Part shown: one piece after another, positions 1-64,000 of the stretch
How positions within the stretch are numbered: the stretch's first letter is position 1
Layout: every line of letters starts with the position of its first letter
DNA from: Kiritimatiellia bacterium
GTDB lineage: Bacteria > Verrucomicrobiota > Kiritimatiellia > JAKQHR01
Length of the DNA stretch: 64,000 bases
NCBI GenBank assembly: GCA_050178035.1
Contig: JBFXGK010000014.1
Location: 8,649-72,648, forward strand
Direction: 5' to 3'
Translations under genes and position numbers: made by a program
The notes under the pieces: generated by a model
Seen by the model: only the letters and a program-made list of their open reading frames with translations
Told to the model about the DNA's origin: nothing
The model's database searches: none

Positions 1-3000
1 GTCTTTGTGGATGACATTGTCCTGCTTGATGCCGGCCAGACCAACCACGCTCCGCTTGCCGACTTCGAGACCCCACTGACTGACTACTGGGATTTCAAGG
101 GTAATCACAGTGCATCGACACAGGAATTCCTCAGCGCGGAAAACAGCAATGGGGTTCTGCACGTGGTTTCGACCGGACCGGGAACAAGCTACTGGAGCGG
201 TGTCGTGATGGAAATGATTCCCAACTTTGTGACGAATATCGATACTCTTGTGGCCCTCTCCTTCCGCGCGCGGCAGATCAGCCGGGAAGTTCCCCAATGG
301 AACTGGATCGCCGTCGGCACGCCGCCGCCGGAACCGGTGATCAATGAAATCATGTTTCACTCTGCCGCCACCAATGAAGATGATTACGAGTACATTGAAC
401 TCTTCAATCCCGGGCCGGACATGGATCTTTCAGGGGCACGCCTCAGCGGCGCGGGATTCACATTCCCGGACGGAACGATGCTCGCATCCAACGCCTTTCT
501 CGTGGCCTGCAAATCCACTGCCGCCATGACCGCGGAATACGGTGTCACAAACGCACTTGGAACTCTCGGAGGAAGCCTGCAGAACAGCGGCGAGGAAATC
601 CGGCTTGAAAACAGCTACGGACGCGTCATGGATGCCGTGGAATACAATGACAAGCGGCCCTGGCCCGAGGCGGCCGACGGCTATGGCCCGTCGCTGGAAC
701 GCCGCAGCCATCTCCTGCCCGCCTCCAACGCGGCCAGCTGGGCAGCCTCCGCCGTTTCCACCAACTGGCAGGCCGTCAGCTGGACCGGGCAAATAGCATC
801 CGCCAACACCGGCCTGAAATTCTTCCTCGATTTTGACGGCAAGGTCTGGCTGGACCAAATTTCCGTCAAGCCGGCCGCGGGCGGGGGAGAAATGCTGGCC
901 AACGGGAATTTCGAAACGGGTATGACCGGTTGGAGCGCAACCGGAAACCACTGGCGCTCAAGGACCGAAGCCTCTGCCGGCGTCACGGGCAGCACGGCCC
1001 TGGCCGTGGCCGGAACCTTCTCGCGCTTTGTCTTCCCGGGCCAGACTCCCGATCTGGTCGTCAACCACGGTGACCCGGCCAGCAACCGGATCACATCTGT
1101 CTCGCTCCCGACCACAAACAGTCACAGTTATGTGATATCCCTTCAGGTTCGGCGCAGCGGTGTTGCGGGCACCCTGTTCTGTGTTGCGGGGAGCACCACC
1201 AACAGCGTTCAGCTCGGTCTTAACGGCACACCCGGCGCCACCAACTCCGTTCAGCAGACTTTGCCTGCTCCGCAAATTGAGGACGTTGACAAACTGTATG
1301 ACATCGTTGATCTCTCGCAGACCAATGTCATCAAGGCAGAAATATCATCCGGCGGAATTGGTTCCGTTAACCTGAAATATCGCGTCTTTACCACCAACGG
1401 CTACCAGTTCACAGACCACCTGTATTCCTCGACACAAATGCTTGATAATGGAGTTGCCCCCGACCTTGCGGCGGGGGACGGAATTTTCTCGGTGGCTTTC
1501 CCGCCGGTCACCACACGCTGGTCGATTGTCCGTTATCACATCGTTGCGGCGGGAACCAACGGAACTGTGTCACGCATCCCGCGCGAAGATGATCCTCAGT
1601 GCGACTATGCCTTCTGGGTCAATGGCCATAATCCGCAAACGGTGCTGCCCAACTGGCACCTGTATGTTGACGGCAACCCCATCCTGTATCCCGTATCCGC
1701 GCACGGCTGCGCGGTGAGTCCGGACGGGCAGATATTCCTGGACACGGAAATCCGCCACCGCGGGGGGCCCACGGTTTCGGACCGGCGCGGCATCGCCATG
1801 AGGACACACCGCGCTCACACCTACGATGCATGGTTCGCTAACAACCAGGGCGGCATCAATTTCCGGCACCGGCAGAACAACAGCCAGTTCTACTACCGGC
1901 GCGTGGTGAATGAACCCATCGCCTACGACCTGCAGCGCGCCATCGGCCTGCCCGCTCCGCGGCTTCGGCATGTTGCCGTGTGGATTGACGGCGCCCCCAC
2001 CATCACCACCGAACTGGAAGATCCGGACGAGTCCTATGTGACGGATCACGGCATCCCGCTTGAAGATCTGGTGACCCGCTCCGGAAACGCGGGGCGGCGC
2101 ATCATTGCCGGGGATGAAACGCTCGACAACCTCTGGAGCGTGGTCAATACGCTGGATGCCGCCAATCCCGCTGATATCCCTTCGCTGGTTGAAACGCATC
2201 TGGACTACGAGTCCATCCGCTATGCGCTGGGACTGCTGGCGGCCGTCGGCAACATTGACCAGAACGTTTCCTGGAACATGTTCCAGCACCGTTCGGCCAG
2301 CGACGGGAAATGGAAGCTGTATCCCTGGGACACGGATTACAGCTTCGCCATTGACGACACCTTCAGCCCCGCCCCGACCAACATGCACCCCTACTACGCC
2401 ACTCCTCTGCATTGGAGCGACATCACCGACAACACCAACGGCACGCAGTTCACGCGCGCGCTGTTCTATCCGGAGAGCGGAACCGGCGAGGAGTTCACCC
2501 TGCCCCACCGTCACCGCCAGCAGATGACGCTGTGGCGCTATTCCCATACGCTGCTCACCACCAATTATCTCCATCCGCGACTGAATGCCCTGCAGGCGCA
2601 ACTGCTGCCGGCCTATGTGCAGCTGGGAATAAACACAAACTATCTGACGGATCAGGTTCTGCTGGTTAAGATATTCATCTCCTCCCGCCGGAATTTCCTG
2701 ATGAACCGGACATGGTCGGACAAGGACACCAACATTTGGAGCGGGCTTCCGTCCTATGACCCGGGCACCGTCGTCATCAACGAGATTATGCCCGATCCGG
2801 CCAGCGGAGGGGAATATCTGGAACTGTATAACCGGGCATCCTATCCCGTGGACCTGAGCTGGTGGAAACTGCAGATCGGAGATGAAGAATACCGCATGCC
2901 CCACGGCGCAACACTCGGAGCAACATCTTACGTTGTGATCGCAGATACACAGTCATGGCTCACCAATGCCTACCAGGAAATCTCCGATCCAGCCCAAATG

Positions 3001-3747
3001 GTTCTGCGCCATGCCGGAGGGAAAGTCTGGGATTGGCCGATCGTATGGACATCCGCCGTGGAGCATTCCGCGCGCGTCATCGAAGTTCCCTCCATCACCC
3101 TGCCCAATTCCGGCGCGGACATTTCGCTGATGGATGTCTGCAGCAACCTGATTGACAGCCTCACCTACACCAATGCCGCACCGTGGCCGTACACAGCGGG
3201 CATTTCCATGGAACTGCTGGAGGACACACTGGACAACTCGCTGGCCACCAACTGGCGCGCAAGTTTTGTGGTCGGCACTCCGGGCTGGAAGAACAGCTCG
3301 ACCGCGGACTCCGACGAGGACGGCATGAATGACGAGTTCGAGTGGCAGATCATCAGCGCTTCCGGCGGAGCTTTCAGCAATATTCTCGATGTGGCTGCGG
3401 CCGATGATTTTGATGGAGACGAGATCCCGAACTACCATGAATTCGTCCACGGAACAGATCCGACAACCGATGACGCCTTCGATGCGCTGGTGGAGATTTC
3501 CGCGACCGGCAGCGCCATCACAGTCTCCATGCAAACCCGCGCACCCGCCGGTGCTGCGTATCAGCTTTACAGCCGGCGCGACTACACGCTGGAGCAAACG
3601 CCGCAGCTGACCAATTCGTGGAACTGGATCACCAATTACTGGCAGATAACGGGTAATGGACAGGAAATAGTCTTTACCAATGCATTGCCTGACAACGAGG
3701 GATTCTACCGCAGCCTGATCCAGCTCGTGCCGCTGCGCCAGCCCTGA
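1..3747 (+). CDS. Secreted CotH-family (spore-coat-H-like kinase) protein flanked by two lamin-tail domains (LTD). 5'-truncated by the window edge. C-terminal FN3-like tail ending GFYRSLIQLVPLRQP.
   Basis: 1246-aa ORF, open to position 1. LTD motifs are INEIMFHSA...YEYIELFNPG and VVINEIMPDP...EYLELYN. The central region (HRAHTYDAWFANNQGGINFRHRQNNSQFYYRR...) looks like a CotH kinase domain. Confidence 0.7.
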   Translation, partial: VFVDDIVLLDAGQTNHAPLADFETPLTDYWDFKGNHSASTQEFLSAENSNGVLHVVSTGPGTSYWSGVVMEMIPNFVTNIDTLVALSFRARQISREVPQWNWIAVGTPPPEPVINEIMFHSAATNEDDYEYIELFNPGPDMDLSGARLSGAGFTFPDGTMLASNAFLVACKSTAAMTAEYGVTNALGTLGGSLQNSGEEIRLENSYGRVMDAVEYNDKRPWPEAADGYGPSLERRSHLLPASNAASWAASAVSTNWQAVSWTGQIASANTGLKFFLDFDGKVWLDQISVKPAAGGGEMLANGNFETGMTGWSATGNHWRSRTEASAGVTGSTALAVAGTFSRFVFPGQTPDLVVNHGDPASNRITSVSLPTTNSHSYVISLQVRRSGVAGTLFCVAGSTTNSVQLGLNGTPGATNSVQQTLPAPQIEDVDKLYDIVDLSQTNVIKAEISSGGIGSVNLKYRVFTTNGYQFTDHLYSSTQMLDNGVAPDLAAGDGIFSVAFPPVTTRWSIVRYHIVAAGTNGTVSRIPREDDPQCDYAFWVNGHNPQTVLPNWHLYVDGNPILYPVSAHGCAVSPDGQIFLDTEIRHRGGPTVSDRRGIAMRTHRAHTYDAWFANNQGGINFRHRQNNSQFYYRRVVNEPIAYDLQRAIGLPAPRLRHVAVWIDGAPTITTELEDPDESYVTDHGIPLEDLVTRSGNAGRRIIAGDETLDNLWSVVNTLDAANPADIPSLVETHLDYESIRYALGLLAAVGNIDQNVSWNMFQHRSASDGKWKLYPWDTDYSFAIDDTFSPAPTNMHPYYATPLHWSDITDNTNGTQFTRALFYPESGTGEEFTLPHRHRQQMTLWRYSHTLLTTNYLHPRLNALQAQLLPAYVQLGINTNYLTDQVLLVKIFISSRRNFLMNRTWSDKDTNIWSGLPSYDPGTVVINEIMPDPASGGEYLELYNRASYPVDLSWWKLQIGDEEYRMPHGATLGATSYVVIADTQSWLTNAYQEISDPAQMVLRHAGGKVWDWPIVWTSAVEHSARVIEVPSITLPNSGADISLMDVCSNLIDSLTYTNAAPWPYTAGISMELLEDTLDNSLATNWRASFVVGTPGWKNSSTADSDEDGMNDEFEWQIISASGGAFSNILDVAAADDFDGDEIPNYHEFVHGTDPTTDDAFDALVEISATGSAITVSMQTRAPAGAAYQLYSRRDYTLEQTPQLTNSWNWITNYWQITGNGQEIVFTNALPDNEGFYRSLIQLVPLRQP

Positions 3748-7407: not shown

Positions 7408-9558
7408 CTATTCTTGCTGCTCGACCACGCGATAGAAAAGTATTATATCTTCACGTATTGGTTCAGATATCGAGTGGATGATGTTGGTAGCAAGTATATC
7501 AGAATAAATGTTTGTCCAATTAGAGGGGTTGAGTGATGTGGCATATTCCACATCATAAGTTTCTCCCGTAAAGGCGACCCATTCAAGCCTCAAGTCCGCT
7601 TCAGTCCGTATTAGGTCTATTGCCGGACGATCCATAAGTAGATGAACTGATTTCTTCGTATTCGTAAAAACAATGGGGTTGGCATAATATTCTGCTGTTG
7701 TTTCATCGAGGTCTACAGCACCATTCCCGTTTGCATCTAAAAAAGCAAATAGATAATAATTCTGATCACTTGTAAGATTTTGAAAGTTAAATGAGCCGGG
7801 GCCGGGAAGCACCACAACATTTGGATTTGGCCCCCAGCTCAATGCAACCATGTTAGGCGATTGAACTGGATAGGAAATCCGAGACAGTTCTCCGCCTGTT
7901 AATACATTTATTGTTTTAAGATATCTGTTGCCCGCATCGTAATCTGATGTAAATACACGCAATACTCCGTTTGGATCAAAATCAAGATCCCACATATCTC
8001 CACAACAACTCGGATTCGATACAAGTGCACTTGCCCCCGTCCATGAAACATTACCCACGGTTTTACTCAAATGATAGAGTCTTCCGGACCACTCATCACT
8101 GCACCAGAGCATCCCGTCCTCATCGATGTCATTGCCCAATATGCTTAACAATCCCGTCTGCTGGCCAGGATTGACATCTCTGGCAGTTAGCGCCACAGTG
8201 TCTATCTTCTTCAGAGTTCCTTGTGCTGTTGCAGTTTCTTCATTCACCGCATAAATAATATCGTTAGTATCAAAAGAAATAGATGTGAATTTCCCACTAA
8301 TTGAATGCCGCATAATAGATGATCCGGTGCTCCGATCAATCGAATATAATTGATTTGATACGCCAGCCACAGAGAGCCATAAATTTGCGTTGCGATCAAT
8401 ATCCATTGTTTTCAACCCGCTATGATTGACACCTATTGGGCCGACAGGATTTACCTCACCATTCACAGGATCAATGGTGACTAGATTTGTTGAGTTTTCG
8501 TCAATACTATACAGAGTCCAGTTTAGAGATGGCAACGAACCATTTGTTGTTAAAACAACCCAACACAATCCGGTAGATGCCCCTCCGTACAAGAACTCCC
8601 CATAAATTGATGCATTTGTAATATCAGGTATTACATTCCACGTGGCCGTTGCTGCGCTTGTAAAGTTTGAATAGTATTTATAGTAGGTTTCGACCCAATA
8701 ATAGTACCGTTGCCCAGTCATCACCGAACCGTCGTTATAAGAGAACATTCCTTTAACCCTCCAGGTTAATGATGTAGCAGTCGGTAAATTGCTTACAGTG
8801 TTTCTAAACACACGATAATATAAACCGGTAAATCCATTCCATGACAACAAGATGTTTGTTTCCACACCCTCTACGGCCTTAAAATCTGATGCTTTTGGCA
8901 CTGGGGCACGAACCTCCCATTGTGAAGGACTAAATTCACTTGTTCCATATTCAGTGCGCGCCTTAATCCAATACCAATATATTATCGACGGTTGAGCAGT
9001 ATAATCATTGTAGGTTGGTACTGTACATTCTCCAATTTTCACCGCTCCCGCAGGTTCGTTGATGGTACTCCGCCATACATCATATGCAACAAGCGGAACA
9101 CCCCCGCTCAACCAATACCATTCGAGTTCGATATGATCAGAATACGTACTTGAATAAAGATCATGCGGTGGTGCGGGTGTAGAATAATTGGTATTTCCCG
9201 AAGAAACATCGGCAAGAAAATATATGTAATACGCACCAGTATCAGGCGAATATGTCGCCTGTTTAATTTCTTCAGATACAAAAGTAGTGCCGTAATTGTC
9301 TGTAATTCTCAGTTTAAACCAAGCGGTTGCATTCACACCCGGACTTATATCCGGTTCACCTCTATATACACTTCTATCATAATCCTCATACAGCACCCAG
9401 TTGGCATTTACATTTTGATAATATAATTCCCAGTCCACACCAAGAGGAAACGGGTCTGGAATGCAATCAATCGAAATATGCGTGTATGCAAAAGATGATG
9501 ATCCCAGTAAAATATAGAAGAGGATTAACGGGCACCACCTTGCTTGAAACACCTTCAT
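7408..9558 (-). CDS. Large secreted protein (FN3-like repeats plus a beta-propeller-like region) encoded in a low-GC island. C-terminal FN3-like tail ending LFYRVVEQQE.
   Basis: The ORF is visibly AT-rich compared with its flanks. N-terminal hydrophobic signal (MKVFQARWCPLILFYILLGSSSFA). Rich in W and Y. No recognisable enzyme motif. Confidence 0.45.
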   Translation of the reverse strand: MKVFQARWCPLILFYILLGSSSFAYTHISIDCIPDPFPLGVDWELYYQNVNANWVLYEDYDRSVYRGEPDISPGVNATAWFKLRITDNYGTTFVSEEIKQATYSPDTGAYYIYFLADVSSGNTNYSTPAPPHDLYSSTYSDHIELEWYWLSGGVPLVAYDVWRSTINEPAGAVKIGECTVPTYNDYTAQPSIIYWYWIKARTEYGTSEFSPSQWEVRAPVPKASDFKAVEGVETNILLSWNGFTGLYYRVFRNTVSNLPTATSLTWRVKGMFSYNDGSVMTGQRYYYWVETYYKYYSNFTSAATATWNVIPDITNASIYGEFLYGGASTGLCWVVLTTNGSLPSLNWTLYSIDENSTNLVTIDPVNGEVNPVGPIGVNHSGLKTMDIDRNANLWLSVAGVSNQLYSIDRSTGSSIMRHSISGKFTSISFDTNDIIYAVNEETATAQGTLKKIDTVALTARDVNPGQQTGLLSILGNDIDEDGMLWCSDEWSGRLYHLSKTVGNVSWTGASALVSNPSCCGDMWDLDFDPNGVLRVFTSDYDAGNRYLKTINVLTGGELSRISYPVQSPNMVALSWGPNPNVVVLPGPGSFNFQNLTSDQNYYLFAFLDANGNGAVDLDETTAEYYANPIVFTNTKKSVHLLMDRPAIDLIRTEADLRLEWVAFTGETYDVEYATSLNPSNWTNIYSDILATNIIHSISEPIREDIILFYRVVEQQE

Positions 9559-9586
9559 AAGCCACCGATGATTATAATGCACGTGA

Positions 9587-10752: not shown

Positions 10753-11562
10753 ATGGAAGAGATGAATATGAATAGAGCAGCACTGTTGATGTTCGCGGCA
10801 ACATTGTCCATCGCATTCTGCGCCTGGTCCGCAAACGCCCAACTGATCGCCGACCCGGTCGGCATCACCGAAGTCGGATATTTCGAGGGTGGCGGCATGC
10901 TCATGCGTTCGACCATCGAATACGAAGAAGAGGAAATCACCCGGAACATTGTCGGCGGTTACTGCATCTACGGGCTCAACGACTACATAGACATCTACGG
11001 ATCCCTAGGTATCAGCGCGTCGGTTGAACCCGAAGGCTGGGATGACAGCGGGCACGGCTACATTTTTGCGGGCGGCATGCGCGGGTTCATCTGGGGCGAC
11101 GGTCCGCTGTCCATTTATGCCTACGGGCAACTGCAGTACCTTGCGGAAGACTATGGCGAATACACGGAGAAGTTCGATGACGGAGACATTTATCAGGAGG
11201 CCACCGTCGGGGCGGAAGCCTCACTGATCGAGCTTATTACGGGCGTCATGGCGGAATATGCCCTGAGCGAACAGTTCATGCTCTACGGGGGCCTGGAGCT
11301 GATCCCGATCAGCGACGGCGAGGCGGAGGCATCCATGGACTACGATCTTCATGTGGATGATGAAGGCATGACCTCGGTCGAACACATCGTGGCTGAAACC
11401 ACAGAAGCCATTGGCTACGAGGAAAGCTACGACGTCAAAAGGGACCTCCCGGCGGTTGTGAGGGGCGGCGCCAGGTTCAACATTGGCAACTGGTTCATTC
11501 GCGGCGAAATCGCGCTTGGCGGGGAAACCGCGTTCGGCATCGGAGCAGGGATTAAGTTCTGA
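10753..11562 (+). CDS. Putative outer-membrane beta-barrel protein (acidic, C-terminal Phe).
   Basis: Signal peptide MNRAALLMFAATLSIAFCAWSANA. Alternating amphipathic segments. Ends ...GIGAGIKF. Confidence 0.4.
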   Translation: MEEMNMNRAALLMFAATLSIAFCAWSANAQLIADPVGITEVGYFEGGGMLMRSTIEYEEEEITRNIVGGYCIYGLNDYIDIYGSLGISASVEPEGWDDSGHGYIFAGGMRGFIWGDGPLSIYAYGQLQYLAEDYGEYTEKFDDGDIYQEATVGAEASLIELITGVMAEYALSEQFMLYGGLELIPISDGEAEASMDYDLHVDDEGMTSVEHIVAETTEAIGYEESYDVKRDLPAVVRGGARFNIGNWFIRGEIALGGETAFGIGAGIKF

Positions 11563-25893: not shown

Positions 25894-28800
25894 ATGAAAA
25901 AGGGGTTGCTGGTTCTCTCATCTTTCTGCTTGTTGCACTTCGCGTTTTCTGCTCCCGCGCAAGATTTAGATTTCGGTGATGCCCCGGAGGGAGCACTGGC
26001 ATATCCGGCAGGTGGTGTTTCAGGCTCTTTCCCAACTTGCCAAAACGTACCCGTAGCAGGCTGGATCCAACATGGCTGGGTTTGGGCATATTTCGGACTT
26101 TCCAAAGATTATGAGACGGAGGGTAATGCTGGCAGCTGCCCTTTATTCAATCCCAACATGTATGACCAGGATGAATGCATGGGCGGCAACGACGCCGGAT
26201 TGATGTTTCCCGATTCTTTTACCATAGTCGGACCGCTCGGATCAGAAACAGTCCAGCCATGCAGTCCCGGTGCAACCAATACGCTGGGAGCCACCTGCCA
26301 GACGGCTGTCTGGGGAACAAATATTGACATTCTGGTGGTCAACAACATGCCTGTGGTCGGCTATGTCAACGTGCTTATGGACTGGGATCAAAACGGTGTA
26401 TGGTCTGGCAGTTCAACGTGCACGGCCGTCTCTGTACCAGAACACGTACTGATCAACTTCCCGGTGCCGGCCCCATATGCCGGCCCCCTGTCAGCCCTAG
26501 GGCCTCCGAGCTTTGTCATTGGGCCTAACGCCGGCCACGTGTGGTGCCGTTTTTCAATCACTGAAACGAATGTGCCTCTTCCATGGACCGGCGAGGGACA
26601 GTTTGAAGATGGCGAAAGCGAGGACTATCTTCTGGAAGTGCTCGCCGGAGGGACAGAAGAAGAGATAGACTTCGGCGATGCACCGGATCCAACCTATCCA
26701 ACACTGCTGGCTAATAACGGAGCGCGGCACACAATCGTGGCGGGGCTTTCCCTTGGAGCGCTGATTGACGCTGAAGGGGACGGCCAGCCAACAGCCAAAG
26801 CCGATGGAGATGACGTAAATCCTCCGATCGCTTTGGACGACGAGGATGGGGTCACCTTCTTGAACGCGATGTTTGCAGGCGTGCCGAATACTATCCAGGT
26901 GGTGGCACTCGTTCCGGCCGGCACGAACGCCTATCTGAGCGCGTGGATGGATTTCGACGGCGACGGGACATGGACAAACGCCGGTGAGCAAATTCTGGCC
27001 GACACCCCCGTGACAACCGGCACCAACTACGTAAAGTTCGTGCCGGGAGCCATCACGGCGACCAATTCGGTCTTTGCGCGTTTCCGCTTGAGCACACAGA
27101 CAAACCTGACCATCACAGGATTGGCACCTGACGGCGAAGTGGAGGACTATGAGGTCCCCATCGTTCCTGTCAAATGGCTGCAGCCTCCGGATCTGACCAC
27201 CACAGGTGTTGATGTGGACAATACCAGCGTCAGACTCGCAGACGACTTCCTCTGCAACCAGACCGGGCCTCTCACCGATTTCCACATCTGGACCTCATTC
27301 AGCGGAGACGTATTCCCCGAGGATCTTACAAGCCTGAGTTTCACCTTATATCTCTATGCAGATGTCCCGGCAGGTGTGGACCTGCCCTACAGCCATCCCG
27401 GCGAGGAACTCTGGGCTCAAACCTTCGCGGCCGGCACATACCATGCCGGACTTGTATCGAGCGGGATCACCGAGTGGTGGTTTGATCCGGTGCTGGGAAC
27501 ATGGACGTTCCCTGGCGATTCTATGGTCTTCCAATACGATTTTCTCATTCCAGAAGAAGAGGCCTTTGTCCAAACCAACGGCACCATCTACTGGCTGGGC
27601 GTGAAATTCGACGAGGCGGATCCCGGCGGATACCAGCTGGGCTGGAAGAGTTCGCAGGCGCAATGGAACGACGATGCCTGCTGGTATGATGGAGCAATAT
27701 GGCAGGAGCTCCGGTATGGAGATGGACATGAGTTGGCACCAGATTCGATGGATTTGGCATTCGCCGTGACTGGTATCGAGAAGGAGGAAGAAGAGCAGCT
27801 CGACTTCGGCGACGCGCCCGATCCGACCTATCCCACCGTCCTGGCCAGCGGCGGGGCCCGTCATGTCATCGTCCCCGGCGTCTTCATGGGTGCGTCCGTT
27901 GATGCCGAACCCGACGGACAGCAGGATCCGAACTCCCTTGGCGATGACAACAACCCTCCGGCAGGCATTGACGATGAAGATGGGATAATTCTGCCTTCCA
28001 TGCTGGTGGCCGGATCCGCCGCGCCGGTTCAGGTCACGGCCTCCACCAGCGGTTTCCTCAACGTCTGGATTGACTTCAACTGCGATGGTGACTGGGCAGA
28101 CGTCGGCGAGCAGGTATTTCTGAACCATGCCATCAGCGCAGGACTGAATGCTGTTCTGATGGGAATTCCACCGCCGCCGGTAACCAAATCCGGCGGACCG
28201 CATTCCCGCTGGCGCTTCACCACCTATCCACCTGCGGTTCCAGCCTACACAAATTTGGAAATGGACGGCGAAGTTGAAGATTATGAAGTCCGTCTGGAGG
28301 TGCTGGATTTCGGCGACGCTCCGGATCCGTCATATCCAACACTTGCGGCGAGCACCGGCGCCTGCCATCGGATTCCCTCCATTTATTATCTGGGGGCGAC
28401 GGCTCCCGATGATGATCCCGACGGCCAGCCCACTTCAGATGCGACAGGTGACGACAGCGATGGCACGGACGACGAAGACGGTGTGACTCTTGGAGGATCG
28501 CTTATTCAGGGTCAATTAACCGCAGCCACAGTCGTCGCCTCCACAAACGGCTGGCTCGATGCCTGGATGGACTTCAATGCGGACGGTGACTGGGCAGACT
28601 CCAGTGAACCCATTGCGTCATCCTCGAACCTGCTGCCGGGGGCCAACACATTGAACATCAGCGTTCCCTTCACGGCCGCGCTCGGCCCGACCTTTGCCCG
28701 CTTCCGCTTCAGCAGTTCCGCCGCCGGGCTGAACCCCGACGGACTGGCCACGGACGGCGAAGTGGAAGATTACATGATCACGATTTATCAGCGCGGACCG

Positions 28801-29049
28801 GACACCAACACATTCTTCATCACCAACATCACGCGCGGCGCCAGCTCCGCCCTGATAGAATGGAGCGGCGGCACCGGCGCAACTTATCAAACACAATACA
28901 CCTTGAACCTGCTCAGCACCGATAATCCGCCGTGGACCGCCTGGGGCCCCTATGTAACCGGCACGCCGCTCGCTCAAACCGACACCAACATGGTGCAAAC
29001 AGCCAAGTTCTACCGTGTGGTTGCGCCATACGCCCCACCGCCCCCATAA
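25894..29049 (+). CDS. Secreted multi-repeat protein. Four repeats of about 190 aa, each starting (L/I)DFGDAP(D/E)..YP and ending DGEVEDY(E/M)(V/I) (GEVED-type domains). One distinct central domain. C-terminal FN3-like tail ending AKFYRVVAPYAPPPP.
   Basis: Signal peptide MKKGLLVLSSFCLLHFAFSAPAQD. DFGDAPD units begin at about 25960, 26668, 27799 and 28303. GEVED-type motifs at residues about 235, 417, 792 and 950. Confidence 0.7.
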   Translation: MKKGLLVLSSFCLLHFAFSAPAQDLDFGDAPEGALAYPAGGVSGSFPTCQNVPVAGWIQHGWVWAYFGLSKDYETEGNAGSCPLFNPNMYDQDECMGGNDAGLMFPDSFTIVGPLGSETVQPCSPGATNTLGATCQTAVWGTNIDILVVNNMPVVGYVNVLMDWDQNGVWSGSSTCTAVSVPEHVLINFPVPAPYAGPLSALGPPSFVIGPNAGHVWCRFSITETNVPLPWTGEGQFEDGESEDYLLEVLAGGTEEEIDFGDAPDPTYPTLLANNGARHTIVAGLSLGALIDAEGDGQPTAKADGDDVNPPIALDDEDGVTFLNAMFAGVPNTIQVVALVPAGTNAYLSAWMDFDGDGTWTNAGEQILADTPVTTGTNYVKFVPGAITATNSVFARFRLSTQTNLTITGLAPDGEVEDYEVPIVPVKWLQPPDLTTTGVDVDNTSVRLADDFLCNQTGPLTDFHIWTSFSGDVFPEDLTSLSFTLYLYADVPAGVDLPYSHPGEELWAQTFAAGTYHAGLVSSGITEWWFDPVLGTWTFPGDSMVFQYDFLIPEEEAFVQTNGTIYWLGVKFDEADPGGYQLGWKSSQAQWNDDACWYDGAIWQELRYGDGHELAPDSMDLAFAVTGIEKEEEEQLDFGDAPDPTYPTVLASGGARHVIVPGVFMGASVDAEPDGQQDPNSLGDDNNPPAGIDDEDGIILPSMLVAGSAAPVQVTASTSGFLNVWIDFNCDGDWADVGEQVFLNHAISAGLNAVLMGIPPPPVTKSGGPHSRWRFTTYPPAVPAYTNLEMDGEVEDYEVRLEVLDFGDAPDPSYPTLAASTGACHRIPSIYYLGATAPDDDPDGQPTSDATGDDSDGTDDEDGVTLGGSLIQGQLTAATVVASTNGWLDAWMDFNADGDWADSSEPIASSSNLLPGANTLNISVPFTAALGPTFARFRFSSSAAGLNPDGLATDGEVEDYMITIYQRGPDTNTFFITNITRGASSALIEWSGGTGATYQTQYTLNLLSTDNPPWTAWGPYVTGTPLAQTDTNMVQTAKFYRVVAPYAPPPP

Positions 29050-38493: not shown

Positions 38494-39495
38494 TTAATCA
38501 TTGAAGATCGCATTCACGGCTTCATCCGCGGCGCGTGCGCCGATCGCGCCGGTAAATCCGCCAACCGTCGCCGTTACGGTTGCGCCCACCACGGCCTTGA
38601 TCTTTGCGCCCCACCCGTTCTTGCGCTGCTCCAGCGCCTCGGCCTCGGTGGCCGCCAGTTTCTCGGCCTGGCGCCGCATGTTGTCGGCTTCCGCCTGCGC
38701 GGCCGCAAGTTTTTTCGCCGCGTATTCCTGCTCTTCAGCCTCGCGCTCGGCCGCCACCTGAGCCATCCCGGCCTGCGACTGCTCCAGCACCTTCTGGCGA
38801 CGCTCCTCGCGCGACTGCGCAAACGCGCCCAGCGGACCGCCGCGGCCTTCCTCCCCGCTCCAGCCCTCCATGGACGCCGGAGCGGCCTCCGCGGCCTTCA
38901 GGGGATTGACGGGCTTGGACGAAACTGGGGGCTCGCCCGTTTCCGCGGTACGGGCTGAACGATCCATCCATATCTTCAAAGGCATCATGGCCTTCCCCTT
39001 CGCGCGCATATCCGCCCACGTCTGGATTTCCGCCAGCAGATCGGCGCCGGACTTCAAATCGGCCGCCAGGACAACTTCTGCAACATGCATCCGCAGGGTC
39101 TCATAACTATCGGGCATTTTCGGGAACCAGCCCAGTGAGGAAACAAGCGTTTTCAGAAGAGCCGGATCTCCGGCTTTTTCGGCTTCCGTGATATCTGTTA
39201 TGAAAGCTTCGAACTTCGCCCGCGACGATTCGCCCATGGCGTTTTCGAGTTTTGTCTTAATGGCCTCACGCTTACCCGAAACCCAGCCGCTCACCGCTTC
39301 GGCCGCTTCGGCCCTGGTCTCTCCGGCATACTGCCCGCACAGGGCGGCCCCTTGAGACTGCACCTGCTGGATAACCAGAAACAGGGTGTAGGACTCCATC
39401 AGCGGCTTTGCGTCGGCCGGCTGCCAGAGCGCTGCCGTCGATGACGCCGCCAGCGCCATGGATGCAAAACAAATCACAAGGAGGAAAGTTTTCAT
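38494..39495 (-). CDS. Secreted Ala/Glu-rich coiled-coil protein with a C-terminal Gly-zipper.
   Basis: Signal peptide. Long heptad-like AEAEAL... region. C-terminus GATVTATVGGFTGAIGARAA. Confidence 0.4.
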   Translation of the reverse strand: MKTFLLVICFASMALAASSTAALWQPADAKPLMESYTLFLVIQQVQSQGAALCGQYAGETRAEAAEAVSGWVSGKREAIKTKLENAMGESSRAKFEAFITDITEAEKAGDPALLKTLVSSLGWFPKMPDSYETLRMHVAEVVLAADLKSGADLLAEIQTWADMRAKGKAMMPLKIWMDRSARTAETGEPPVSSKPVNPLKAAEAAPASMEGWSGEEGRGGPLGAFAQSREERRQKVLEQSQAGMAQVAAEREAEEQEYAAKKLAAAQAEADNMRRQAEKLAATEAEALEQRKNGWGAKIKAVVGATVTATVGGFTGAIGARAADEAVNAIFND

Positions 39496-43503: not shown

Positions 43504-46164
43504 CTATTTTGAGGCGTCTGTGTTAAAGCCGGAATTTTCAGCCTGGATCTGTCCCTGAGACAGTTCGCTCTTCAACTGCTCAACCGGACGCTGCTTCAAA
43601 TCCTCGATGGCCGCAGGGTCATTGCGCTGGGCCATGATCATCCAGCTCACTTTTGCGCCCGCAACGCCTCCGCCGACCACAAAGCGGTTCCCGCTGATTT
43701 CTTCCTTCACATACAGATTCATCTGCGCGCCCACGGGCGTCAGGAGATATTGCGGATTGATGTTCAGACGGTCGAAGTAAGCCGGAAGCTGCACAACGGC
43801 TTCACCATTTGCATCCAGCACTTCGGTTCCGTTGTAGATATTCTGGACCACCGGCCCCTCTGCGCAAAAATGCCGCAGCACTTTGTTTTCCGGGTCCAGC
43901 GGGTGATCAATGACAAAAGCTTTTGTGCTCCAGGCTCCAGTGCCGAATGTCTGGCGGTATTTGATGTTGGCATCCGCTGTACCGGTGCCGTCAATATAGA
44001 GCGTTCCGCGCACCGCCGTGCTGTTGTTATATAAATTAGTGATATTGTGCCCGATGGCAATGCGTTCGCTTCCATATGCTGTGCTGGCCCCGGCACCAAT
44101 GGCAATATTCGTGGAACTGGCCTGGGCTCCATATCCAATGGCCACGCCGGGACCAATGCCGGAATTTGCCGATCGGCCAACGGCAACGCCGCCGTTATAA
44201 CGCGCATTGGCACTGGGTCCCACTGCAACTCCACCACCATAATCGGCCATGGAACTGCTGCCGATGGCAACACCAGCATTGGAATGGACATTGGCCAAAT
44301 AGCCGATAGCTATGCCTGAGGCATGTGCATTGGCACCCCGTCCCACGGACACAGCATAACCATCCGCATTCGCGCCTGAGCCCAACGCCGTGGCGTTAGT
44401 AAGCGCAACAGCCTGATAGCCGACGGCCGTATCATACTGCTTCATAGCGCGGGCTTCAGATCCAATGGCCACAGACATGTTGGTTGCCTTGGCCAGATGA
44501 CCAATACCCACGGAGTAACTGAAACCTGTGGCGCCTGTGCCCATGGCGACGCCCCACCAGGCTCCATTGGCCGAGCTGCCCAGCGCAACCCCGCTCCATC
44601 CGTTCGCATCGTATCCGATCTCAATCGCACCACCCGGAGAGTTGGTGATGACAAGTTCGCCGCCGGCGCCGATATTGAATCCCAGAGCACCGGTCATCTG
44701 ATCGCCCGACACCTGAACATACTGCGATGGATCGCCAATGAGATTGCTCCAGCTTCCAGATCCAAAAGATGAGCGATAATAAATTCCCGTTCCGCCATCC
44801 AGATAAAGCGAACCGCGAATGGCGGCCGTATTGTTGATTGCGTTGGTGACATTGTGGCCAATGGCAATGCGTTCGCTTCCCGCACTGGCCCTTGCAGCCG
44901 CACCGATGGCAATGTTGGTTCTCGCACTGCTGAGGCTGAGGCTGTTGGCGGCGGCATCATTGATCGTCAGTGTGCCCGTCATGGTGTCGCCGGTTTTCTG
45001 CACAAAGCCTGTAGTTGAGCCGCCGCTGGCCAGCGCAGTCCACACCCCGCTTCCGAAGTTAGTGCGGAAATACACATTTGACCCGCCATCCAGAAACAGG
45101 GTGCCCCGCATGGCCACGGCGTTGTCCTGGGGAGTGGAAACCGCATGCCCGATGGCAATGCGCTCTGAACCCACGCCGGATGCCGCCATCCATCCGATGG
45201 CAATGTTGGTTGATGCTCCGCATGCGGAATTGCCGATGGCAATGCCGGTATTGTCGGCATCGGCAAATGCGCCGACCGCCACTCCGGCAAGAGATCCGTT
45301 AGCACTCCGGCCCACCGCCACTCCGGCGTTGTATCCATCGGCGGCTCTGCCGATGGCCGTGCCGTTGTTGCCCCCGTTGGCGTTTGCGCCCACCGCGGCG
45401 CCGGACCAGTAGCCGAAGGCGCCGTAGCCAAGGGCCGCGCCCATCTGGCTGCCATCCGCATAGGCGCCCACGGCGGCGCCCGTAATGCTTCCGTCACTGT
45501 TGTAGCCAACGCCCGCGCCGTAATCGGAACCGGCTGCCTGCGAACCAACGGCCACGCCCCGTGAGGACCCGTACGAGTTGTTGCCGACGCCCACGCCATA
45601 AGCCGATCCATTCGCCGTATTGCCGACCGTTGCCCCGTAATTGAAAGCATTGGCGTCAAATCCAACGGCTGCACCGTAGGAATTTCCGTTGGCGACATTG
45701 CCAACCATGACATCCTGCCCTGAGCTGGAGATAATCAAGTCGCTGCCGGCCCCGGCGTTCATGTGAAGCGGCCCGGTCATCGTGTCCCCGCTTTTCCGGA
45801 CGGCCGTGATGGCATAAGCCACCTGATTGATTTGCTCACGCGGAGACAGAGTGACACCGTTGACCGCCACCTCGATATAAACAATGGGATTCGTCAGTGC
45901 CGAATAAAGAGTGGGTGTCAGGGCGTTGATCCCAATCGTGGTTGAATAGAGTCCGTCCACGGCGGTTACCTTCTGGGTCTCGGCATATAGAAGCGTTCCG
46001 CCCGCGGAAGCATTATAAAGCCGAAAAACGTTGGTTACTGTACCGTTTACGAGATTCGTGCCAACAATCAGCCGACCCTGGTAATTGAACTTCGTATCGG
46101 TTTCCCCCGCATAAACAGCAGAAACCGCGAATGCGAGAAGAACTGCAAACATCAACCTCTTCAT
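43504..46164 (-). CDS. Giant secreted Gly/Ala-rich repeat protein (YadA-head-like NIAIG/ERIAIGH repeats). Adhesin or tail-fibre-like.
   Basis: Signal peptide MKRLMFAVLLAFAVSAVYA. Dozens of xAxGxxAxG repeats. Recurring TNIAIG(A/W)xAxx(A/G)SERIAIGH(N/A)(V/I)(S/T). Confidence 0.6.
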   Translation of the reverse strand: MKRLMFAVLLAFAVSAVYAGETDTKFNYQGRLIVGTNLVNGTVTNVFRLYNASAGGTLLYAETQKVTAVDGLYSTTIGINALTPTLYSALTNPIVYIEVAVNGVTLSPREQINQVAYAITAVRKSGDTMTGPLHMNAGAGSDLIISSSGQDVMVGNVANGNSYGAAVGFDANAFNYGATVGNTANGSAYGVGVGNNSYGSSRGVAVGSQAAGSDYGAGVGYNSDGSITGAAVGAYADGSQMGAALGYGAFGYWSGAAVGANANGGNNGTAIGRAADGYNAGVAVGRSANGSLAGVAVGAFADADNTGIAIGNSACGASTNIAIGWMAASGVGSERIAIGHAVSTPQDNAVAMRGTLFLDGGSNVYFRTNFGSGVWTALASGGSTTGFVQKTGDTMTGTLTINDAAANSLSLSSARTNIAIGAAARASAGSERIAIGHNVTNAINNTAAIRGSLYLDGGTGIYYRSSFGSGSWSNLIGDPSQYVQVSGDQMTGALGFNIGAGGELVITNSPGGAIEIGYDANGWSGVALGSSANGAWWGVAMGTGATGFSYSVGIGHLAKATNMSVAIGSEARAMKQYDTAVGYQAVALTNATALGSGANADGYAVSVGRGANAHASGIAIGYLANVHSNAGVAIGSSSMADYGGGVAVGPSANARYNGGVAVGRSANSGIGPGVAIGYGAQASSTNIAIGAGASTAYGSERIAIGHNITNLYNNSTAVRGTLYIDGTGTADANIKYRQTFGTGAWSTKAFVIDHPLDPENKVLRHFCAEGPVVQNIYNGTEVLDANGEAVVQLPAYFDRLNINPQYLLTPVGAQMNLYVKEEISGNRFVVGGGVAGAKVSWMIMAQRNDPAAIEDLKQRPVEQLKSELSQGQIQAENSGFNTDASK

Positions 46165-46537: not shown

Positions 46538-47899
46538 ATGGAACGCAATAGAGGAAAGGCGGCTAAAATGACACGGAAGCACCGGACCGGGAACTTATAC
46601 AGGCGGGGAAATGTTTGGTGGCTCAGGTACATGGTGGAGGGTAAAACCGTTTATGAATCCCTGCACTGCACCAGCCGGGATGATGCCGAGAAGGAGCGCA
46701 AGCGGATCATGCGCCCCTTGATGGCCGCCGACAAAGCCGACGTGCTGGCCAATATCTCAAAGCGACTGACCGACGCGAAGGACGAACAGGCCGCCGCCAA
46801 CGAGGAAGCCAATCCCCCGCTGGCAATCGCCGCCGCTTGGGATGCGTACTATGACAGCAAGAGCCGTCCCGATTCATCGGAGAGAACGCTGGCCGGATAT
46901 GAGAGCGCATGGAAAAGATTCAAGCGGTGGATCGAGAAGGAACACCCGGACATCAAACAGATGCGCGATGTTTCAAAGAACCTTGCCGCCGCTTACGCAA
47001 AAAAACTTGAAGCTGATGGAGTGACCGCCAGCACGTTCAACCAGCATATCGGGCTGATGCGTCTGGTATGGCGCACACTGGCAGAGGAGATTCGCGCAGG
47101 TTCAAACCCGTGGATGGACATGCGCCGGAAGAAACTCGGAGCGCAGAAGGTGGCGCACCGCCGCCGCAATCTGACACCTGAGCAATTTGATACCCTTCTA
47201 AAATGCGCTGGCAGTGCAGACATGCACGACCTTCTTTTTACTCTTGGATGGACTGGCCAGCGTCTCGCGGATATTGTTCTGTTGAAATGGAACTCAATAG
47301 ATTTCAAGCGTAAGGTTGTCACGATTCACCCGCTGAAATTGCGGCGCACAGGCAAGGAGGTTCATATTCCCCTGCTGCCACAGCTTGCGGATATTCTCAG
47401 AATGAGAAAGCGGAACGCCGCCGGGCCTCATGTGTTCCCCGAACTGGTGGAAGATTATCAGCGTGATCCGTCAGCACTGAGCAAGCGGATTGCCGCCGCC
47501 TTTGACAAGGCCGAACTGAACCCCCGCGAAAAACTGCCCGGAGTATCTAGGGCCGTTGTCGTTTATGGGGCGCATAGTCTGAGGCACTACTTCGCAACGC
47601 AAGCCCTTGCCGCAGGGATACCCTCCGAGATCGTGAAGCGAATCACCGGACACACCAGCGACACCATGCTTGCCAACTACGAGCATTTGGATGCGCGATT
47701 TATCGGAGAACTGGCGAACAAGCTACAGGCTCAACCACTGAACCCGCAGAAGCAAATCGCCGCACCGCCAGCGCATGAAGATAATCCCCTGCCCCCGTGG
47801 GCCGCGAAAATGATCGAGGGAATGACAGCAAAGAACTGGAAGAAAGTGAAAACCGAACTGCTCAAGATTCATGCGGAACCACAGGAGGCCGGACAATGA
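46538..47899 (+). CDS. int: Tyrosine site-specific integrase.
   Basis: C-terminal catalytic region HSLRHYFATQALAAGIP...ITGHTSDTMLANYEH (R, HxxR, Y). Confidence 0.85.
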   Translation: MERNRGKAAKMTRKHRTGNLYRRGNVWWLRYMVEGKTVYESLHCTSRDDAEKERKRIMRPLMAADKADVLANISKRLTDAKDEQAAANEEANPPLAIAAAWDAYYDSKSRPDSSERTLAGYESAWKRFKRWIEKEHPDIKQMRDVSKNLAAAYAKKLEADGVTASTFNQHIGLMRLVWRTLAEEIRAGSNPWMDMRRKKLGAQKVAHRRRNLTPEQFDTLLKCAGSADMHDLLFTLGWTGQRLADIVLLKWNSIDFKRKVVTIHPLKLRRTGKEVHIPLLPQLADILRMRKRNAAGPHVFPELVEDYQRDPSALSKRIAAAFDKAELNPREKLPGVSRAVVVYGAHSLRHYFATQALAAGIPSEIVKRITGHTSDTMLANYEHLDARFIGELANKLQAQPLNPQKQIAAPPAHEDNPLPPWAAKMIEGMTAKNWKKVKTELLKIHAEPQEAGQ

Positions 47900-48972: not shown

Positions 48973-49096
48973 CCCGTTTCCGCTGGTGAAAAAACAGGGG
49001 GCATTTTCACCCCTGCACCTCATTAGGACTTTTTGCGCCTATCCCATATTTTTCCCGCAGTGAGATTGTGAGTCTCAAAACACAGAAAGGGAAAAT

Positions 49097-53382: not shown

Positions 53383-53478
53383 TGCTATATCCCGTGCTTG
53401 AGTCCGGCAACTGTTTCATTCGTGATGCAACACACTTTCGGCCGGTATATTATGCGCCTTATCTTTATATGGCGGTCG

Positions 53479-62477: not shown

Positions 62478-64000
62478 TTACGGGAAAGTGACCATTGTGC
62501 GGTAATAGCCAGTCGCACCGTTGTTGGTTACTGAAAGCACGACTGCACCCCCGATGCCGGGCTTGTTCAGGCCCATACGCGTCCAGGTTATGCTCCCGGT
62601 CAGGTTTGTGGTCCAAATGAGGTCGTACACGCGGTCGCTCGATGTCGGCGGGCCCGTGGTGATGTTCAGGACGGCCGTGCCCACGGCGCTGGTGATGGTG
62701 TTCTGGTAGAACGAGAGTATGTTCAGCGGATCGGTGTCAGTGATATATTCATAATGATTGTCTTTCCCGTCGCCGTCGGCATCGTCGCCCGGATTGTTGG
62801 TCAGGCTCGTGAATTTCGTCCATTCCCACGCATCCGCGATACTGTCGAGATCGGAGTCGAACGGAACCACGATGACGGTTGCATTCGTCACCACGCTGTT
62901 GGTTTCGGCCTGTCCGTCATCGGCGACGAAGACAACCGCATTGGTCGTGTTCGCATGAACGACGCCCGCGGTCCATGAGAAGGTCGTGCCGACATAAGAT
63001 GCCCCGGCCGGCGCGACGGTGTTGGTCAGGGTCACGGGATCACTGTCCGAATCGCTGGCGGTCACGGCAAAGTTGGTGGCCGCGCCCACAGGCAGGATGT
63101 GCGGGCCGGGCAGGCTGATCACCGGCGCATGGTTCTGCGCCATTTCCTCAATCTTCAGGTACTGCACCAGCTCGCCGTCGTTGGTGATCGCGTTGACCGT
63201 GCCGCCCTCCAGATTCACCCAGACGCCGCTGCTGTAGAGTTCCGCGCCCGACTTATTGGTCGGCCAGAGATACACACCGGCATCACTCGAGGCCAGGTTG
63301 CGCACGTTGTAGAATTTGCCGGTATCCATCCCCAGCAGACTCCACGGTCCTGTCAGATCATAAGTGGCCGACGCGCCCGCATGCGCCTCGCCGTGCCGGA
63401 ACAGCAGCGCGAACGCCAGCACGACATCCTTGTCGATCGGCGAGGCATAGGCCTCCTCGTATTTCGCCACCGCCATGATTTTACCCTCGTCGCCGCCACC
63501 GACCTTGCTCAGGAAATACCGGTTCTGGCTCTGGAGCGCGGGGCTGTTCAAACGCGCCCAGTTCACGCGGCCGTACCACTGCGCAAGGCCTCCGTTGTTC
63601 GGCGGAGGATTGGACCAGACCATCAACTGGTTCCACTGCTTGAATTGCGGGATGTACTTGCCAAAGTTCTCCTCGTGGTCGGTGCGGAAGCCGTCGTAGT
63701 ACCAGAAGGACGGATCGGAATTATAGTTCTGGATGCCCTGCTCCTGCCCGTAAAACATCATCGGAATGCCGTCCACCGTTGAGACCGCCCCGTAGCGGCT
63801 GGCCGTCAGCCAGGTGTCGTTGTCCGGCAGCACTTCGTCATGCGAGGTCAGGTTCAGCAGCACCGCGCCGCCGTTGTAGCTGCTGCGCCGGTCTTCCAGC
63901 GCGCTGCGGATGGCCCACGAATCGTTGATGTGCGCCTGCGTGAACTGAAACACGAGGTTCTCGTTCAGCACGTCGAAATGGCGGTTCGACCGGTAGCCGG
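62478..64000 (-). CDS. GH13 (alpha-amylase family) glycoside hydrolase, C-terminal portion. 5' end lies beyond the window. C-terminal FN3-like tail ending GYYRTMVTFP.
   Basis: FYGQEQG and LLNLTSHDE resemble GH13 conserved regions. The ORF stays open to the window edge. Confidence 0.5.
   Translation of the reverse strand, partial: GYRSNRHFDVLNENLVFQFTQAHINDSWAIRSALEDRRSSYNGGAVLLNLTSHDEVLPDNDTWLTASRYGAVSTVDGIPMMFYGQEQGIQNYNSDPSFWYYDGFRTDHEENFGKYIPQFKQWNQLMVWSNPPPNNGGLAQWYGRVNWARLNSPALQSQNRYFLSKVGGGDEGKIMAVAKYEEAYASPIDKDVVLAFALLFRHGEAHAGASATYDLTGPWSLLGMDTGKFYNVRNLASSDAGVYLWPTNKSGAELYSSGVWVNLEGGTVNAITNDGELVQYLKIEEMAQNHAPVISLPGPHILPVGAATNFAVTASDSDSDPVTLTNTVAPAGASYVGTTFSWTAGVVHANTTNAVVFVADDGQAETNSVVTNATVIVVPFDSDLDSIADAWEWTKFTSLTNNPGDDADGDGKDNHYEYITDTDPLNILSFYQNTITSAVGTAVLNITTGPPTSSDRVYDLIWTTNLTGSITWTRMGLNKPGIGGAVVLSVTNNGATGYYRTMVTFP

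Follow-up and report, generated by a model that had tools for sequence, protein, structure and literature searches.

A C-terminal FN3-like domain with an FYR motif on diverse proteins of Verrucomicrobiota and relatives: a candidate surface-localisation module

Verrucomicrobiota and their relatives abound in soil, water and guts, where they degrade polysaccharides, and their sets of extracellular enzymes and adhesins are very large. To our knowledge, no phylum-typical sorting module other than PEP-CTERM has been described for Verrucomicrobiota, and neither Verrucomicrobiota nor Kiritimatiellia, in which the tail discussed below is found, is known to have a T9SS. Dockerins localise enzymes by non-covalent docking and do not export them, and PPC domains are cleaved off once the protein has been secreted. 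In T9SS, a sortase-like protease takes the C-terminal domain off the cargo, which is attached to the surface through lipid or LPS. Bacterial extracellular enzymes commonly contain FN3-like modules, which are functionally neutral; Fn3 modules of the classical bacterial type mostly sit inside the protein, where they link catalytic to binding modules. The T9SS C-terminal domain (CTD) adopts a seven-strand Ig-like fold with its export signal in the last two strands, and provides a precedent for a small C-terminal beta-sandwich that serves as an outer-membrane export signal (PMC4804311). Within 20-40 aa, tripartite signals combine a signature motif with a transmembrane helix and a basic cluster, and one of them, PEP-CTERM, is present in Verrucomicrobiota (bioRxiv 10.1101/2023.06.07.544157).

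Four window tails and their family

Within the 64-kb window, by which we mean the whole stretch of DNA from a Kiritimatiellia bacterium that was analysed, four ORFs end in one module of ~70-80 aa with the pattern …W..G..Y.v.Y..L…W…[FY]YR, followed by 6-11 aa and the stop codon (Table 1). This FYR tail is carried by 4 of the roughly 45-50 genes in the window, and a search for further copies within the window found none beyond these four. ORFs of at least 100 aa in the six frames of the window contain 7 [FYW]YR tripeptides, 4 of which sit 6-11 residues before the stop (rough binomial P ~1e-6).

Table 1. Tails, linkers and parent proteins in the window
Feature	Position	Strand	Remarks
LTD + CotH protein	7..3747	+	Pfam LTD 2e-30, CotH 2e-13
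Acidic D-x-D-x-D-G linker	3307..3471	+	Immediately upstream of CotH tail; from sequence
Divergent FYR tail, LTD-CotH protein	3481..3744	+	...GFYRSLIQLVPLRQP-stop; marginal HMM match, aligned at C-terminus
Low-GC-island secreted protein	7408..9558 (ORF 7408..9582)	-	Weak DUF4394 match
FYR tail, low-GC-island protein	7411..7647	-	79 aa, ...LFYRVVEQQE-stop
Signal peptide, low-GC-island protein	9481-9558	-	
GEVED (x4) + DUF7901 secreted protein	25894..29049	+	1051 aa; Pfam matches
Sec signal peptide, GEVED/DUF7901 protein	25894-25965	+	
FYR tail, GEVED/DUF7901 protein	28798..29046	+	83 aa, ...FYRVVAPYAPPPP-stop; site of the earlier note
Fourth protein ('GH13' in the earlier note)	62478..63998 (ORF 62478..>63998)	-	N-terminus outside window
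Divergent FYR tail, fourth protein	62481..62720	-	...GYYRTMVTFP-stop; 'YD..WTTNL...FYRT' subgroup
Acidic D-x-D-G-D-G linker	62721..62858	-	Upstream of fourth tail; from sequence

Of the four window tails, the most canonical is that of the low-GC-island protein, which is encoded in an island with a GC content of 0.43 compared to ~0.58-0.60 in the DNA on either side. The GEVED/DUF7901 protein is the same, at 100% identity, as P0161 from Met96 on (NCBI 'GEVED domain-containing protein [Kiritimatiellia bacterium]'). A contig search located the window proteins on short Logan contigs of run SRR27751817 and nowhere else, and it did not find P0161. The earlier note assigned signal peptides to all four parent proteins; those of the GEVED and low-GC-island proteins are clear Sec signals, while the N-termini of the CotH and fourth proteins lie outside the window, the LTD-CotH ORF being open to base 1. 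Its label of GH13 hydrolase for the fourth protein found no confirmation, the 506 aa inside the window matching no Pfam family and no PDB sequence. The acidic linker of this protein found no match in Pfam, and that of the CotH protein gave only a sub-threshold hint of TSP3_bac (E=0.011). P0070 and P0075 share the layout of the CotH protein, with an acidic linker followed by the tail.

Pairwise identity among the window tails is weak (25-28%; 28% for the CotH tail compared with the fourth), as would be expected if their likeness were a matter of chance or composition without a shared module. The tails were also scored against a family HMM that was built without any window sequence. The low-GC-island and GEVED tails reached E=4e-18 and 1e-12, respectively, while the CotH tail was marginal (6e-4) and the fourth tail, taken alone, was not significant (0.38), the latter also being in keeping with chance. 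The fourth tail falls in a divergent subgroup together with P0070, P0075, P0098, P0135 and P0143, and the alignment of this subgroup matches that of the main family in hhalign with 94% probability (E=1e-7); judged by sequence, the fourth tail is a family member via its subgroup profile only. Given these matches, the size of the family described below and the six-strand topology common to two tails that were modelled independently, chance likeness is hardly credible overall, and the HMM scores together with the subgroup profile match rule it out for at least 3 of the 4 tails. The ORF ends are exactly as the earlier note had quoted them, and its view that the four proteins share a C-terminal (F/Y)YR module is upheld by these same profile matches.

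A word-indexed protein search was too insensitive for a divergent domain of 70 aa, yielding 1 match with a 4-tail profile and 11 with a 57-sequence profile, and for this reason an exhaustive search of representatives was used. With a weak 4-sequence profile, it returned 1,548 cluster representatives at E<=1e-3, most of them from Verrucomicrobiota. No model in Pfam-A or NCBIfam covers the tail, whether the window tails or consensus-like members of the family were tried, in agreement with the earlier statement that it matches no known family model. The Pfam fn3 model (PF00041) failed to match the window tails even at E<=10, or ten consensus-like members at E<=1; the best PDB sequence match was an FN3 domain of neuroglian (E=0.003). 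A search of the literature on the FYR motif and on PVC sorting domains found nothing relevant. Taken together, the sequence comparisons indicate that the tails belong to a single large domain family, which has no entry in Pfam-A or NCBIfam and is typical of Verrucomicrobiota sensu lato.

Fold and position of the tail

Two AlphaFold models of tails (pLDDT 77 and 89) predict a six-strand FN3-like sandwich comprising strands A, B, C, C', E and F, without strand G. The final strand consists of the (R)FYRV motif, and the chain stops 2-8 residues past strand F. The modelled beta-sandwich superposes on solved FN3 domains, consistent with the fold that had been proposed from sequence, and its fold matches are generic FN3 domains, including the Fn3 modules of cellulosomal and other glycoside hydrolases. 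FN3 domains such as the Fn3 of C. thermocellum CtXyl5A (PDB 5g56) and the Fn3-like protein 3mpc retain strand G, and the canonical set of seven strands (A, B, C, C', E, F and G) contrasts with the six predicted for the tail. The earlier note had described a fold truncated after strand F. Strand G is indeed missing, but it is missing from every copy, including internal ones, in which FYRVxLxP runs directly into a Pro-rich linker; the six-strand form is therefore the native form of the family rather than a truncation.

In addition to lacking strand G, the tail differs from bacterial Fn3 modules in being strictly C-terminal with a conserved final residue. In 137 of 150 protein hits, no more than 5 residues separate the end of the last tail copy from the C-terminus. 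A stop-blind scan of species-representative genomes with a degenerate DNA pattern gave a comparable picture: among 83 HMM-confirmed matches, which include one false positive (the histidine kinase L044), the stop follows 3-8 residues after the V in 78, whereas chance matches scatter. The chain ends 4-6 residues after the invariant Arg, mostly on Pro. Of the terminal copies, 66-69% finish on Pro and 14-17% on Gln, compared with ~13% Pro at the matching position of internal copies.

A single copy is the rule (76 of 78 in a sample not biased by copy number). Tandem arrays of 2-8 copies with internal members nonetheless exist, and L064 bears one N-terminal tail domain just behind its signal peptide. 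These internal and N-terminal copies indicate that the tail is a folded domain rather than a simple tag, and that it can work elsewhere in a protein than at the C-terminus. Apart from the conserved last residue, terminal copies are not a clade or sequence class of their own: the nearest foreign copy came from the terminal pool (139 copies) in 40 cases and from the internal pool (118 copies) in 24.

Passengers and comparison with known C-terminal systems

The N-terminal parts of the tail proteins are as diverse as the four window proteins had suggested, with 51 Pfam families found in 53 proteins and none of these in more than 6. A crude test showed an obvious signal peptide in 27 of the 50 hits whose sequence begins with Met.

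We asked what occupies the C-terminal slot in the 120 best homologues of the GEVED/DUF7901 passenger, the one passenger family to which this comparison applies. The FYR tail was present in 43, a T9SS-type CTD (called by Pfam PF18962 or PF13860, with NCBI names of the type 'T9SS type A sorting domain-containing protein') in 38, and dockerin/EF-hand repeats in 7, all at an equal position. The FYR tail always finishes 87-99 residues beyond the last GEVED motif, and the T9SS CTD finishes 107-113 residues beyond it in 22 of 34 cases. None of the T9SS-type homologues has an FYR domain ahead of its CTD, and a hydropathy screen of the 120 found none with a C-terminal transmembrane helix and basic cluster. 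This replacement of the tail by T9SS domains or dockerin-like repeats suggests, indirectly, that it may occupy a slot for sorting or anchoring. GEVED proteins may carry sorting domains more readily than most, which would weaken this argument.

The FYR tail and the T9SS CTD are both small beta-sandwiches of ~70-100 aa that stand at the extreme C-terminus of Sec-exported proteins of many kinds, usually in single copy, and in GEVED/DUF7901 homologues both directly follow the last GEVED domain. In contrast to the seven-strand, Ig-like CTD, the modelled tail has six strands with an FN3-like topology and sometimes occurs in tandem arrays. It matches none of PF18962, PF13860 and TIGR04183, and aligning 38 CTDs with the family in hhalign yielded a probability of 0.35%, on which basis a diverged T9SS CTD was rejected. 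No T9SS component (PorK/L/M/N, Sov, PorV or PorU) was found among the annotated genes of the window (64 kb of genome).

Like the type I dockerin (PF00404), the tail is found at the C-terminus of many unrelated secreted enzymes. The dockerin is a duplicated, Ca-binding helical F-hand, whereas the tail is predicted to be an all-beta sandwich and has no PF00404 match; the acidic D-x-D-x-D-G stretch upstream of two of the window tails lies outside the tail itself. Dockerins have cohesin as their partner, and nothing comparable to cohesin is known to pair with the FYR tail.

With PEP-CTERM/exosortase, LPXTG/sortase, GlyGly-CTERM and MYXO-CTERM, the tail shares its C-terminal position and its occurrence many times per genome on unrelated secreted proteins. 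It was rejected as a tripartite signal of this kind because it is a folded domain of 70 aa with neither a hydrophobic stretch nor an Arg/Lys cluster. The four window tails end ...PLRQP, ...APPPP, ...VEQQE and ...MVTFP, and the NCBIfam sorting-signal models did not match them. The earlier judgment that the tail is neither a T9SS CTD nor PEP-CTERM accordingly stands, as it shows 0.35% in hhalign with the former and lacks the hydrophobic helix and basic end of the latter. The PPC domain (PF04151) is another small beta-sandwich with which secreted proteins end, sometimes in duplicate, but its model does not match the tail, and in some tail proteins PPC is found upstream as a separate domain.

A search of the neighbouring genes for a partner turned up no candidate: neither a partner enzyme, protease or secretion gene nor any recurring conserved gene was found among the neighbours at 81 loci and in the window. 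The only recurrent neighbour cluster not made up of the domain itself (10 loci) proved to be Arg-rich antisense ORFs of the tail-bearing genes.

Readings of function

We tentatively favour the view, with a probability of roughly one half, that the FYR tail is a lineage-specific C-terminal module for surface localisation, acting in export or docking. A passenger protein with its folded tail would first leave the cytoplasm via Sec, after which the tail would be recognised by a putative outer-membrane or surface component that either aids the passenger across the outer membrane or keeps it on the cell surface. We infer that the exposed edge of strand F and the free C-terminus of the tail have a role in this recognition. 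The logic would be the same as that of the T9SS CTD or the dockerin of other phyla. This localisation role is favoured by the large family, by a strict C-terminal placement seen with two independent methods and by the Pro or Gln specific to terminal copies, as well as by the usual single copy, the diverse passengers, the slot equivalence, the T9SS precedent and the presence of the tail in 4 window genes. It is weakened by the lack of a partner gene, the internal and N-terminal copies and the lack of a terminal sequence class, and further by the facts that FN3-like modules are common and neutral and that the slot test covers one passenger family. A bolder version, which we regard as less likely than not, holds that the tail is the recognition domain of a sorting pathway of the PVC group (Verrucomicrobiota, Kiritimatiellota and Lentisphaerota), that it evolved independently from an FN3-like fold as an analogue of the T9SS CTD or dockerin, and that a putative outer-membrane receptor, translocon or sortase reads it via the F-strand edge and the terminal Pro.

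A serious rival, and one that is quite possible, is that the tail is a common FN3-like domain that serves for structure, spacing or adhesion and has no role in sorting. It would have reached the ends of proteins through domain shuffling onto the 3' ends of genes in these lineages, and it would stabilise or extend its passenger, or stick it weakly to substrates such as polysaccharides. The generic FN3 fold matches, among them glycoside hydrolase Fn3 modules, and the neuroglian domain as best PDB sequence match are what such a domain would give, and the tandem arrays, internal copies and N-terminal L064, the inseparability of terminal and internal copies as classes and the absence of a partner gene nearby all fit with it. 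However, 91-94% of copies end near the stop, far stricter than is usual for spacer or binding modules, the conserved final Pro/Gln is specific to terminal copies, nothing else comes after the domain (L064 excepted), and in homologous passengers it is exchanged one for one with T9SS CTDs and dockerin-like repeats. That same exchange with T9SS CTDs, along with the small, usually single-copy beta-sandwich at the extreme C-terminus and the conservation of its last strand and last residue, would also suit a cleaved outer-membrane export signal of the T9SS-CTD kind, unrelated in sequence and served in the PVC group by a dedicated translocon and a sortase-like protease; in T9SS, too, it is the last strands of the CTD that contain the export signal (PMC4804311). 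We consider this improbable, given that the tail has no sequence kinship with T9SS CTDs and six strands versus seven, that arrays of up to 8 copies would be unexpected, that no candidate machinery was found, and that dockerin-like repeats, which dock rather than export, occupy the same slot.

How enzymes and adhesins are delivered to, and retained at, the cell surface of Verrucomicrobiota and their relatives is poorly understood, and the tail domain offers a concrete handle on this problem. It is easily recognised, and can be used as an HMM, for counts per genome and for phylogenetic profiling in the search for partner machinery. Even if the tail were merely structural, a family model would still allow thousands of 'hypothetical' proteins to be better annotated.

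Four tail-bearing proteins and their family

All four ORFs named in the earlier note as carriers of the FYR tail, a ~70-80-aa C-terminal FN3-like module, are present in the window with the C-terminal ends quoted there, and a search of the window for extra copies found none beyond these four. Across six frames, window ORFs of 100 aa or more contain 7 [FYW]YR tripeptides, 4 of which sit 6-11 residues before the stop (chance ~1e-6, by a rough binomial). Sec signal peptides are visible in the GEVED and low-GC proteins, whose N-termini fall inside the window. Since pairwise identity among the four tails is just 25-28%, homology has to be argued from profiles. With a family HMM from which all window sequences were left out, the low-GC tail, which is the closest window match to the Verrucomicrobial consensus, scored E=4e-18, the GEVED tail E=1e-12, the CotH tail E=6e-4 and the fourth tail E=0.38. 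Relatives of the fourth tail form a separate subgroup (database proteins P0070, P0075, P0098, P0135 and P0143) that is C-terminal in all members, each with an acidic D-x-D-G-D-G linker preceding the tail; compared profile to profile, subgroup and main family matched with 94% probability (E=1e-7) and with landmark residues aligned. The pairing of acidic linker and tail found twice in the window is seen again in P0070, P0075, P0135 and P0143, and the linkers gave only a sub-threshold TSP3_bac match against Pfam. The in-window part of the fourth protein returned no Pfam or PDB sequence match supporting its earlier label of 'GH13' hydrolase.

Coordinates of the window features discussed in the text
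Feature	Position	Strand	Remark
LTD-CotH protein	7..3747	+	FYR tail; runs off window
Acidic D-x-D-x-D-G linker	3307-3471		thrombospondin-type-3-like; upstream of CotH tail
Low-GC island protein, DUF4394-like	7408..9582	-	FYR tail
Putative beta-barrel	10753-11562	+	signal peptide, no tail; ends ...GIKF
GEVED/DUF7901 protein	25894..29049	+	FYR tail
333-aa protein	38494-39495	-	signal peptide, no tail
886-aa protein	43504-46164	-	signal peptide, no tail; no Pfam match
Lower-GC block	46538-55648		GC 0.48-0.54
Tyrosine integrase	46538-47899		in lower-GC block
Protein with BT4734-like primase N-terminal domain	49822-51081		in lower-GC block
tRNA-Lys	55573-55648	-	bounds lower-GC block
Fourth protein	62478..>63998	-	FYR tail; runs off window
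Acidic linker	62721-62858		upstream of fourth tail

An exhaustive search of the four-tail profile against 1.84 billion cluster representatives recovered 1,548 proteins at E<=1e-3, with the rough consensus P.I.S....G.v.ltW.sv.G..Y.lQY...L....W......vtAtg......d......qRFYRV.l.P-stop. The family is absent from Pfam-A, NCBIfam and the searchable literature. No model in Pfam-A (2025 copy) or NCBIfam 20.0 covers the window tails at E<=10; ten consensus-like members searched at E<=1 gave scattered partial sub-threshold matches only, and a literature search found no paper describing the FYR motif. A PDB sequence search found no solved structure in the family, the top match being a neuroglian FN3 domain (E=0.003). 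AlphaFold2 models of the GEVED tail (pLDDT 77) and the low-GC tail (pLDDT 89, pTM 0.74) predict a domain that is by fold an FN3 variant. The description 'FN3 truncated after strand F' holds insofar as the models lack a G strand; the truncation itself does not, because internal copies in tandem arrays likewise run from FYRVxLxP straight into a Pro-rich linker, and the six-strand form is therefore native to the family.

The DUF4394-like gene has a GC content of 0.43, compared to ~0.58-0.60 in flanking DNA. Its location in a low-GC island, together with its near-consensus Verrucomicrobial tail, suggests that the gene, tail included, was horizontally acquired. The lower-GC block, several ORFs of which have no family match, looks like a mobile element integrated at a tRNA gene.

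Position, passengers and taxonomic range

Among the best 150 of the 1,548 protein matches, the last copy ends <=5 residues from the C-terminus in 137, and the exceptions mostly end in a degenerate copy. As an independent test of position, 185,579 species-representative genomes were scanned with a DNA pattern (AACTGG, a 60-90 nt gap, then QRFYRV codons) that is blind to the stop codon. A stop follows 3-8 residues past the V in 78 of 83 HMM-confirmed matches, and chance matches are scattered; one of the 83, locus L044, is a histidine-kinase false positive. The one clear exception is locus L064 (minus strand, pattern match ~1635 in reverse-strand coordinates), where the domain directly follows the signal peptide and >1,500 more residues come after it. 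Arrays of 2-8 copies occur in the score-ranked protein list, and they are a minority, because 76 of 78 ORFs in the DNA-scan sample, which carries no copy-number bias, have a single copy. Terminal copies usually end 4-5 residues past the Arg, in Pro (66-69%) or Gln (14-17%), while Pro occupies the corresponding position in only ~13% of internal copies. Terminal copies as a distinct sequence class were rejected (nearest foreign copy terminal 40, internal 24; pools of 139 and 118). The passengers, i.e. the N-terminal remainders of these proteins, span 51 Pfam families across 53 proteins with no family in more than 6, and many tail-bearing matches carry clear Sec signal peptides.

Verrucomicrobiota account for ~75 of ~90 confirmed genome matches (Limisphaerales, Pedosphaera, 'subdivision 3', Opitutia, Methylacidimicrobium and Roseibacillus), with a few in Lentisphaerae and Acidobacteriota and one in Dongiaceae; because the DNA pattern favours the Verrucomicrobiota variant of the motif, the family may extend beyond these groups. 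The window itself belongs to a Kiritimatiellia bacterium. A related ...KFYRVTAE tail also closes some GEVED proteins of Cloacimonetes. Eight loci (L002, L050, L057, L077, L101, L111, L113 and L117) encode large secreted proteins with canonical FYR tails at 55-65% GC in third-party-assembled MAGs labelled Bifidobacteriaceae or Bifidobacterium; these labels look doubtful, pointing to mis-binning or mis-assignment.

C-terminal ends of GEVED homologues

With the tail removed, the GEVED/DUF7901 passenger served as query, and the 120 best homologues were grouped by what stands at their C-terminus. The FYR tail ends 43 (36 by HMM, 7 by motif only), a T9SS-type sorting domain 38 (precomputed PF18962 or PF13860; NCBI names include 'T9SS type A sorting domain-containing protein'), and dockerin or EF-hand-type repeats 7; a further 11 stop just past the last GEVED domain, and 21 have other endings or are fragments. 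From the last GEVED motif to the protein end there are 87-99 residues in FYR-tailed proteins and 107-113 in 22 of 34 T9SS-type proteins; no T9SS-type homologue has an FYR domain ahead of the CTD. Within this one passenger family, sequence comparison thus places FYR tail and T9SS CTD in equivalent positions, one replacing the other. The possibility that the tail is itself a diverged T9SS CTD was rejected (hhalign 0.35%).

Other endings were also observed. In P0162, P0163 (named as Phycisphaerae), P0164 and P0167, a Cys-containing dockerin or EF-hand-like repeat fills the FYR-tail slot, with repeated D.DDDGDVDL.DF..FQ.CFNGPN units and Cys as the final residue. Nine homologues (P0210, P0222, P0252, P0258, P0261, P0263, P0273, P0275 and P0277) end 25-40 residues past the last GEVED motif in a common short hydrophobic motif, ...LPL[VI][LMF]R.Y..., a possible further C-terminal signal of very short length. 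The deposited P0161 ('GEVED domain-containing protein [Kiritimatiellia bacterium]', 956 aa) is 100% identical to the 1051-aa window ORF from Met96 on; its start was probably mis-called (window 25894-26181), since it omits the clear Sec signal peptide MKKGLLVLSSFCLLHFAFSAPAQD.

Sorting signal, surface anchor or plain domain

The earlier proposal of a sorting or secretion tag is partly supported. In our view the FYR tail is most likely a C-terminal module for surface localisation, working as export signal, surface anchor or both. Its strict terminal position, conserved last residue and usual single copy argue for this role, as do its promiscuous Sec-exported passengers and its one-for-one swap with recognised sorting or docking domains. 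Against it stand the internal and tandem copies and the single N-terminal one, a neighbour search of 81 loci and the window that turned up no partner or sorting machinery, and a slot equivalence drawn from a single passenger family. A serious rival, to which we give about one chance in three, is that the tail is a plain terminal FN3-like domain with no part in sorting.

If surface localisation is its role, a partner would recognise the tail as a folded beta-sandwich. The T9SS CTD, a small beta-sandwich working as an outer-membrane export signal, is a precedent (PMC4804311), and the FYR tail is alike in logic to this CTD or to a dockerin. Having neither transmembrane helix nor basic cluster, it does not qualify as a tripartite sorting signal. 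Occasional arrays and the dockerin-like repeats in the FYR-tail slot lead us to lean towards docking or retention rather than a cleaved export signal. Three signal-peptide proteins of the window lack the tail, so not every exported protein here carries it. Through the FYR tail, the question of PVC surface-protein sorting becomes directly testable.
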